IMG/VR virus record: IMGVR_UViG_3300008259_004660 | Location: 32,001 to 96,000 of that record | Strand: one strand, 5' to 3' | Length of the DNA stretch: 64,000 nucleotides | DNA from: a virus | Shown here: piece by piece, positions 2,830 through 59,995 of the stretch | Position numbering within the stretch: the first letter of the stretch is position 1 | Layout of the letters: the number at the start of each line of letters is the position of its first letter | Position numbers and translations under genes: made by a program | Notes under the pieces: generated by a model | The model's database searches: none | Told to the model about the DNA's origin: nothing | The model's input: only the letters and a program-made list of their open reading frames with translations

Positions 2830-2976
2830 TGTTTGATAAGTTTGTAAAAGTAGCAAAGAACACACTTACTGTTATATTGCTTGTATTATTATTGGTGATG
2901 TTCTTCGGTGCGGTAATGTGATATATAAAAAGATGTATTAGTTGATCTGGTTTATATTTATATAAAGACCATATAT

Positions 2977-3288
2977 ATGAACGAAAATTGGAGCACAATG
3001 AACATGGATGCATTTTATCCTCGCGGAAAAAGCAAGGATGAAGTAAGTATGAATGACATCAACAATCTTCTTAAAGGTCGTTCGTATACCCAAGAACCAC
3101 TGGCATATAATCAAATACAGGAACACGATCCAAACGATATAAGAGAACTTGAAGAATATTGCCAAAAGCGTGGTATACTTGGTGTAAATTTTGGCGGAAG
3201 AAACCCAAAAGCCGTGCTGCAAATGCTAAAAGCAAGAATGGGTGAACGCAGCGAGCCAACAATCAAAAGAGGAATACTAAATGGATAA
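2977..3288 (+). CDS. Hypothetical protein
   Basis: 103-aa ORF overlapping next start. Confidence 0.65.
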   Translation: MNENWSTMNMDAFYPRGKSKDEVSMNDINNLLKGRSYTQEPLAYNQIQEHDPNDIRELEEYCQKRGILGVNFGGRNPKAVLQMLKARMGERSEPTIKRGILNG

Positions 3289-58537: not shown

Positions 58538-58571
58538 GGCGGGGGAGCGTAGTGGCTCCCCCGCCTTTTTT
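58538..58571 (+). terminator. Intrinsic terminator (copy 1)
   Basis: ggcgggggagc/gctcccccgcc stem plus T-run. Confidence 0.85.
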
Positions 58572-58610: not shown

Positions 58611-58844
58611 ATGGACACCAAAGAATTTAATCGCGATCAATTGAAAAAATGCTTTCTTGATCTTTCAATACGAGCAAAAGAACTGAATGAACCCTACATC
58701 CAAAGTGTAGCAATGGTTCTTGCCGCATCAATTGCAGAAGAAAGTGATGCTGCTCTTGCTATTTGGGTAGGTGAGTTTGCCAAGATGAGAATTGATGACA
58801 TTGAAGATCAGATATTTGGTGAAGAAGATGAAAATGCGCCTTGA
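58611..58844 (+). CDS. Hypothetical protein
   Basis: Promoter cassette; stop in next -35 box. Confidence 0.6.
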   Translation: MDTKEFNRDQLKKCFLDLSIRAKELNEPYIQSVAMVLAASIAEESDAALAIWVGEFAKMRIDDIEDQIFGEEDENAP

Positions 58845-58878
58845 CTTTTGATAAAAAAGAATCATAGTTATCAGCACT

Positions 58879-59013
58879 ATGAAGATGAACACCACTATCA
58901 AGATTCGCAGCCAATTCACCTCTGGTCTTAATTTGGGTGGCTGCACCCACAAGACCAAGAAGGGCAAAGGCAGTTATTCTCGCAAAGCCAAGTATGGCAA
59001 TCGTTGGGAGTAA
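58879..59013 (+). CDS. arfA: ArfA-like alternative ribosome-rescue factor, 44 aa (not in ORF track)
   Basis: HKTKKGKGSYSRKAKYGNRWE matches the ArfA KKGKGSYxRKxK motif; own promoter and CACT-ATG. Confidence 0.65.
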   Translation: MKMNTTIKIRSQFTSGLNLGGCTHKTKKGKGSYSRKAKYGNRWE

Positions 59014-59650: not shown

Positions 59651-59995
59651 ATGAACATACTAGCACCCTCATTAATCAACAAGAATGCCGTGGTCAATGG
59701 ACCCAAGGTGGGTGATATTCTTTGCAGCACATATGGCTACGATGCTTGCATCGCCCATTTTGCCAAGGTAGTTGAAGTAACCAAGGCTAGTGTGAAGTTG
59801 GAACTGCTTGGTACCATTGATAATTACACAAGCCCAATGACTTGGGACAGCAAGCCAGACATTAATTCGTCTGGCGGCACTGTGGTAACGAAGCGATTCA
59901 AGGCCAATGGTGACAGCTATAAGGTCAAGGATACCAGCTGTGCCACGTTTTATCCTTGGTGCGGCAAGCCCATCAACTGCTACAACTATCATTAA
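59651..59995 (+). CDS. Hypothetical protein
   Basis: VGDILCSTYGYD...F.KVV pattern. Confidence 0.7.
   Translation: MNILAPSLINKNAVVNGPKVGDILCSTYGYDACIAHFAKVVEVTKASVKLELLGTIDNYTSPMTWDSKPDINSSGGTVVTKRFKANGDSYKVKDTSCATFYPWCGKPINCYNYH

Follow-up and report, generated by a model that had tools for sequence, protein, structure and literature searches.

Does a large phage carry its own factor for freeing stalled ribosomes? The question is raised by a short ORF in a large uncultured freshwater phage, known from a 184.8-kb IMG/VR virus record that is estimated to be 78% complete. We analyzed the surrounding 64-kb stretch of this record (hereafter the window) and, where stated, the record as a whole. 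The original prediction, made from the letters of the window, was that a 44-aa ORF at 58879-59013 encodes a miniature form of the ribosome-rescue factor ArfA. Inspection of the sequence confirmed an ATG-to-TAA frame of 44 residues at this position. The locus is laid out as follows, in window coordinates:

58841-58868 (+): sigma-70-like promoter cassette, with TTGACT, a 16-nt A/T-rich spacer and CATAGT (consensus scan)
58879-59013 (+): ArfA-like ORF, ATG to TAA, 44 aa
58879-58947 (+): codons 1-23, family-specific N-terminal module (alignments, dN/dS)
58948-59010 (+): codons 24-44, basic tail homologous to ArfA residues 30-52 (Pfam, phmmer, hhalign, shuffle test)
59011-59013 (+): the gene's own TAA stop, directly after a W-E pair equivalent to ArfA W51-E52

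The ORF is a conserved gene under purifying selection

A word-indexed search of 5.8 billion proteins returned six homologues of 43-46 aa, with 78-89% identity to the phage peptide. When 1.8 billion cluster representatives were searched with a HMMER profile, 15 matches were obtained, all but one of them short (38-54 aa, and longer only via upstream start calls). About 30 short homologues occur in metagenomes, and the exact 44-aa sequence is present in the ESM Atlas. Fused or longer forms of the family were also considered and discounted, as the all-length HMMER search gave short proteins only, plus an unrelated repeat protein (P0019).

A scan of IMG/VR identified 14 phage contigs with the gene. 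All 11 distinct loci keep the frame, a Met-Lys start, a length of 41-46 aa and a stop codon 0-1 codon after a conserved Trp, and DNA alignment of these loci shows heavy change at third positions. Pairwise dN/dS values range from 0.05 to 0.24, with dS near or beyond saturation. When the two halves of the gene are considered separately, dN/dS is ∼0.30 for the N-terminal half and ∼0.23 for the tail, indicating that both are constrained. Most of the loci come from one group of related phages in which the genes of the early island, neighbors of the ORF, have been shuffled. Two sets of loci (L007/L008 and L011/L012/L015) have no neighbors in common with the window, and the gene is therefore present in at least three phage lineages. 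In a set of 50,697 phage records, blastn with a 6-kb region centered on the gene gave no match, and neither did tblastn with the peptide, whose signal was probably removed by the low-complexity filter. The 44-residue ORF is a genuine conserved gene.

The C-terminal tail is homologous to that of ArfA

As a reference, we used the E. coli K-12 arfA gene (b4550), translated from NC_000913. The E. coli segment that had been quoted in the original prediction turned out to be exactly residues 31-52 of this protein. Phage residues 25-44 align to these residues with 15 identities and one 2-residue gap, making the phage tail 75% identical to that of ArfA. The Smith-Waterman score of the tail (80; z = 10.3) was reached by none of 100,000 composition-preserving shuffles, and therefore the match is not an effect of Lys/Gly composition.

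Profile comparisons gave the same answer. ArfA (PF03889) is the sole Pfam match of the peptide (E = 3.2e-5), with residues 24-39 corresponding to profile positions 28-43 of 44. The ArfA HMM, a search with which had been suggested as a check, does detect the peptide, but at 23.7 bits the score lies below the gathering cut-off of 25.5, and by score alone the peptide is not assigned to the family. All 24 members of a wider alignment (A2) match Pfam ArfA and no other family (best E = 1.1e-5), and PF03889 is also the precomputed label of P0005, a close homologue. An NCBIfam search of the peptide returned no match. When all PDB chains were searched with phmmer, the ArfA chains of 5U4I, 5H5U and 5MDV were recovered, with phage residues 24-42 on ArfA 30-48. 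Comparison of A2 with an ArfA alignment (A4, comprising nine enterobacterial and seven phage sequences only) by hhalign gave a probability of 95.1% and E = 3e-8 over 23 columns, with phage 20-42 on ArfA 26-48. In PHROGs, the tail is matched by a 48-position family whose function is unannotated. Of the 30 clusters that lie nearest to the peptide in the ESM Atlas, 29 carry the ArfA domain and have lengths of 43-49 aa (score 0.93, 209 of 256 shared features), which we take as a lead only.

The aligned region corresponds to a functionally defined part of ArfA. Cryo-EM has placed ArfA residues 31-48 in the empty mRNA tunnel of the 30S subunit; ArfA cut at N47 is still active, while a cut after M40 abolishes activity (PMC5378476). 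The phage tail spans the whole of this required stretch, reaching the equivalent of N47, the minimum active length according to the same study. It has the basic character and the KGKGS-type motif of a predicted tunnel binder (ArfA 31-48). At its C-terminus, the phage protein stops at the counterpart of W51-E52; mature E. coli ArfA, a truncated product of 52-55 aa (PMC6299226), stops there as well. The ArfA-like C-terminal end noted at the outset is thus upheld by the Pfam, PDB and hhalign comparisons. On the basis of these alignments, residues 24-44 are homologous to the ArfA tail, and it is to the tail that the similarity to ArfA is restricted.

The N-terminal module is conserved and does not align with that of ArfA

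The N-terminal half had been described as divergent, and this is what we find. Neither Pfam nor hhalign aligns residues 1-19 to ArfA, and the RF2-activating minidomain is not recognizable. In ArfA, this hydrophobic minidomain (A18, L19, L24 and F25) binds Trp319 and the Val198/Phe217 pocket of RF2 and opens the factor (PMC5378476). The phage module nevertheless has a conserved pattern of its own, in that residues 8-21 are conserved to the same degree as the tail. Three of these residues (R10, S11 and F13) are invariant in the family alignments (A1 and A2), and three more (K8, L19 and G20) are nearly so.

If the register set by the tail is extended without gaps (phage i = ArfA i + 6), L19 falls on ArfA F25 and F13 on ArfA L19. 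The former ArfA residue inserts into the RF2 pocket and the latter belongs to the hydrophobic patch (PMC5378476). Position 23, which is hydrophobic in most family members, falls on ArfA V29 in the same register. These equivalences, which derive from the ungapped register alone, might be compatible with a diverged version of the ArfA strand and patch. AlphaFold2, supplied with the 24-sequence alignment, gave no secondary structure and no confident fold (pLDDT 62).

A separate resemblance was noted between residues 8-21 (window 58900-58941) and E. coli ArfA residues 57-70 (L016 4441-4482, minus strand), with 7 of 14 positions identical. This comparison was post hoc, and its score was reached by 28 of 20,000 shuffles; hhalign reports no match between the two segments. 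ArfA residues 57-70 make up the hydrophobic C-terminal extension that is removed from the mature active form in E. coli.

The gene has its own stop codon and a phage promoter-like cassette

Expression of E. coli arfA involves a non-stop mRNA, generated via an internal hairpin, RNase III site or terminator, and we found no such arrangement in the phage gene. There is no terminator-like site within the ORF. The single-sequence fold is mildly stable (z = -2.0), with a local 6-bp stem, and the consensus fold over 11 loci (-1.9 kcal/mol) contains no supported helix. A conserved hairpin or terminator inside the ORF, as expected of a non-stop design, was consequently rejected, since the 6-bp stem is not conserved across loci. 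Given that the stop codon directly follows the tail in 11 of 11 loci and that no conserved RNA structure precedes it, the arfA-type non-stop arrangement is absent and the short form is encoded directly. This agrees with the original prediction, which held that only the short form, with its own stop, is made.

An early-type promoter had likewise been proposed, and a repeated phage promoter cassette indeed lies directly upstream. Its motif occurs 11 times in the window, compared to 0.65 expected, and the same cassette is found at the same distance upstream of the homologues in seven other loci (L002-L006, L009 and L013). The end of the cassette and the ATG are separated by 10 nt, and no Shine-Dalgarno sequence is seen; from these two features, we infer that the mRNA is near-leaderless.

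Two further elements of the locus were recorded. Upstream of the ArfA-like cassette, a 229-aa ORF and a 77-aa ORF are separated by a strong terminator-like hairpin (window 58538-58565, plus strand), with a stem of 11 bp, 10 of them G-C, and a run of T after it. A 114-aa ORF (window 59651-59995, plus strand), with a weak match to phrog_37844, lies on either side of the ArfA-like gene and within ∼1 kb of it in eight related loci, making it the most faithful neighbor.

The phage encodes a tmRNA and probably infects Verrucomicrobiota

To whom do the ribosomes belong? The phage encodes a DnaK of 619 aa, outside the window (G000:C1:111465-113324; L044), whose nearest named cellular relatives, at ∼75% identity, are from Opitutaceae, Lacunisphaera and Candidatus Didemnitutus, all Verrucomicrobiota. 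Judging from this similarity, the host is probably a freshwater member of the Verrucomicrobiota. Whether the host has arfA had been put forward as a check, and we carried it out for the inferred host phylum. PF03889 was detected in 2 of 401 sampled Verrucomicrobiota genomes, and ArfA was not found in the other 399. One of the two matches is a mini-ORF with the same type of tail, and the other is a weak match inside a 575-residue open frame. The possibility that the phage family is a general chromosomal factor of Verrucomicrobiota was rejected, as the family profile matched only 1 of the 401 sampled genomes. ArfA itself occurs in beta- and gammaproteobacteria, whereas the gene described here is phage-borne.

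The record also encodes helicases, a ligase and six tRNAs, and an ARAGORN search of the whole record revealed a tmRNA (C1:8603-8996, plus strand; locus L036 1004-1397), 23 kb before the window. This tmRNA is full length in Rfam RF00023 (95.2 bits versus a gathering score of 47), and its tag, as predicted by ARAGORN, has 25 residues and ends in Leu-Ala-Ala-Ala. No gene for SmpB or for an RF-1-domain protein was found in the 184.8-kb record. A full tmRNA is present in 2 of 10 related contigs, which are 19-64% complete. In one of the two, which belongs to an otherwise unrelated phage lineage (L007 4001-4129 and 6180-7869; contig G408:C1:35765-36136), the ArfA-like gene, a block of nine tRNA genes and the tmRNA form a compact translation island of ∼5 kb. 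Among phages, tmRNAs have been described in mycobacteriophages and in Bacillus phage G (PMC4131195).

A proposed role in ribosome rescue

We propose that the gene product is a phage-made, ArfA-like ribosome-rescue peptide, and put the probability of this mechanism as a whole at roughly 55%. The tail would enter the mRNA tunnel that is left empty when a ribosome stalls at the 3' end of a broken or stop-less mRNA, and the N-terminal module (residues 8-21), placed in the A site, would recruit and activate a class-1 release factor of the host. The release factor would then hydrolyze the peptidyl-tRNA, as happens with ArfA, ArfT and BrfA. Because the host is itself inferred, the identity of the partner, RF2 or RF1, stays a proposal. 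Since the frame carries a stop codon and lacks a conserved internal hairpin or terminator, synthesis of the peptide would follow the activity of the promoter, and trans-translation would not repress it. The peptide might thus act in parallel with the phage tmRNA, so that ribosomes stay available during infection, when mRNAs of both host and phage are being cut. Against this reading count the Pfam score under the cut-off, the empty NCBIfam search and the unaligned N-terminal half; moreover, SmpB and ArfB, whose catalytic logic differs, likewise place a basic tail in the mRNA tunnel. For a factor of about this size with its own stop, the 40-aa ArfT may serve as a precedent (PMC6299226).

The part of the peptide that is homologous to ArfA is precisely the part that would bind the tunnel, and this raises the alternative that it plugs ribosomes rather than rescuing them. 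An ArfA-type tail would then occupy the tunnel of vacant or stalled host ribosomes without peptide release. The effect might be to bias or halt translation in the host, or to keep tmRNA-SmpB and other rescue or defense factors away from stalled ribosomes. Several observations fit such a role: no RF2-activating minidomain can be recognized, the gene is of the early type and sits in an island of small takeover-like ORFs, and ArfA A18T permits RF2 binding without peptide release (PMC5378476), so binding without rescue is physically possible. However, these are the ribosomes on which the phage itself relies, and it encodes a tmRNA, which favors the promotion of rescue; in addition, constraint on the N-terminal module equals that on the tail, beyond what a simple plug should need. 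We therefore consider a plug unlikely, although it is the alternative to be taken most seriously. Less probable still is that the peptide helps the phage's own tmRNA, acting with the C-terminal tail of SmpB or replacing its function, and so favoring the phage tmRNA on stalled ribosomes. The peptide does co-occur with a phage tmRNA here and in two related contigs, and the record has yielded no SmpB or RF-1-domain gene; yet the peptide shows no similarity to SmpB, the tails of SmpB and ArfA compete for the same tunnel in all solved systems, and most of the contigs bearing the gene show no tmRNA, although these are only 19-33% complete (compared to 78% for the record itself).

A chance open frame, or an ArfA likeness that merely reflects Lys- and Gly-rich composition, was also considered, given that the ORF is very short, its Pfam score falls under the cut-off, and its tail is rich in these two residues. 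This explanation is excluded by the dN/dS values and the shuffle test, and we assign it hardly any weight: random sequences of the same composition never attained the tail score, every member of the wider alignment matches ArfA, and frame, length, start and stop are kept in at least three phage lineages despite saturated synonymous change. The finding is real and biologically sensible; as for function, our inference remains rescue, with the phage probably freeing stuck ribosomes itself, judging from the homologies described above.

Comparison with known rescue factors

ArfA (YhdL; PF03889; PDB 5U4I, 5H5U, 5MDV, 5MGP and 7OJ0) of beta- and gammaproteobacteria is, like the phage peptide, small and basic. 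Both contain a Lys-Gly-Lys-Gly-Ser-Tyr core, followed by Arg-Lys and then by a Gly-Asn-Arg...Trp-Glu end. The N-terminal parts are similar in length, and in the ungapped register the phage peptide has hydrophobic residues at the positions of ArfA L19 and F25. In contrast to ArfA, the first 23 residues of the phage peptide have no detectable homology to the minidomain, and the gene has its own stop and lacks an RNase III or terminator hairpin, so that it should not be repressed by trans-translation.

ArfT of Francisella tularensis has 40 aa and its own stop, and recruits RF1 or RF2 (PMC6299226). Compared by description only, ArfT and the phage peptide are alike in size, in having their own stop, in not being subject to non-stop regulation, in an ArfA-like basic C-terminal motif, and in an N-terminal part that differs from that of ArfA. 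The ArfT tail is only loosely ArfA-like, however, and ArfT has no hydrophobic residue at the F25 position, where the phage peptide has Leu. BrfA (YqkK) of Bacillus subtilis is another small, RF2-dependent rescue factor whose C-terminal part binds the tunnel; its evolution was independent of that of ArfA (PMC6881298). Again by description, BrfA is made from a non-stop mRNA, as is ArfA, whereas the phage gene has its own stop.

Other phages also carry ArfA-like genes. A tblastn search with E. coli ArfA revealed short ArfA-like ORFs in cultured phages, most of which terminate at a stop of their own within a few residues of the tail. Those of Pseudoalteromonas phage J2-1 and Citromicrobium phage RXM are annotated as ArfA, and others were found in Pseudomonas phage pf16, Roseobacter phage CRP-212, Erythrobacter phage XM05, Ralstonia phage RsoM2USA and Salmonella phage Arash. 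The ORFs of pf16 (L023 295-438), CRP-212 (L025 289-414), RsoM2USA (L027 334-456) and Arash (L024 298-441) are unannotated, overlap other calls or are mislabeled; the one in Arash lies within gp99c, annotated as 'ribosomal protein L2'. In the literature, gp30 of pelagiphage HTVC027P has been named ArfA (PMC12753301), and our literature search found no experimental study of any phage ArfA. The cultured-phage proteins resemble the peptide described here in being phage-encoded, in their length (40-60 aa) and in their tail motif. They keep the canonical ArfA core, however, with an Asn-x-x-aliphatic helix and then a Phe/Tyr-Arg-x-Arg/Lys strand, in place of which the present family has a different conserved module. 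Since cultured phages already carry short ArfA-like ORFs with their own stop, this design is not unique to the gene.

Phage ArfA-like genes thus being known at the level of annotation, what is new here is the distinct N-terminal module and the probable non-proteobacterial host. One could go further and regard the family as a distinct, virus-borne class of release-factor-recruiting rescue factor, in which an ArfA-derived tail is joined to a new effector module for non-proteobacterial release factors (probably those of Verrucomicrobiota, which lack ArfA), without the tmRNA fail-safe and paired with a phage tmRNA as a two-part rescue kit. We offer this extended reading as tentative, and hold it with clearly less confidence than the rescue role itself.

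Should the peptide prove active, large phages would supply hosts without ArfA with a rescue capacity of viral origin, consisting of a tmRNA and a release-factor-dependent factor, and the tunnel-binding tail of ArfA would emerge as a portable module, able to combine with more than one kind of effector. With its 44 residues and new N-terminal module, such a factor would offer a compact means to study the activation of release factors in the absence of a stop codon, and could reveal the partner release factor in a phylum for which no back-up rescue is known. The element of surprise is moderate, since GenBank already contains annotated ArfA-like genes of phages and one paper mentions them.

Finally, a scan of 185,579 species genomes identified only three bacterial loci with this variant of the tail, two in Verrucomicrobiota MAGs and one in a Bacillota MAG. 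The corresponding ORFs (L018 about 2905-3138, L019 about 2884-3090 and L020 about 2935-3117) share the tail variant His-Lys-x-Lys-Lys-Gly-Lys-Gly-Ser-Tyr. The two Verrucomicrobiota ORFs are ∼48 aa long and have their own stop, and the Bacillota ORF, of ∼75 aa, continues into a hydrophobic C-terminal extension, which recalls the design of arfA and brfA. Based on their tails, these three ORFs may encode unrecognized rescue factors.
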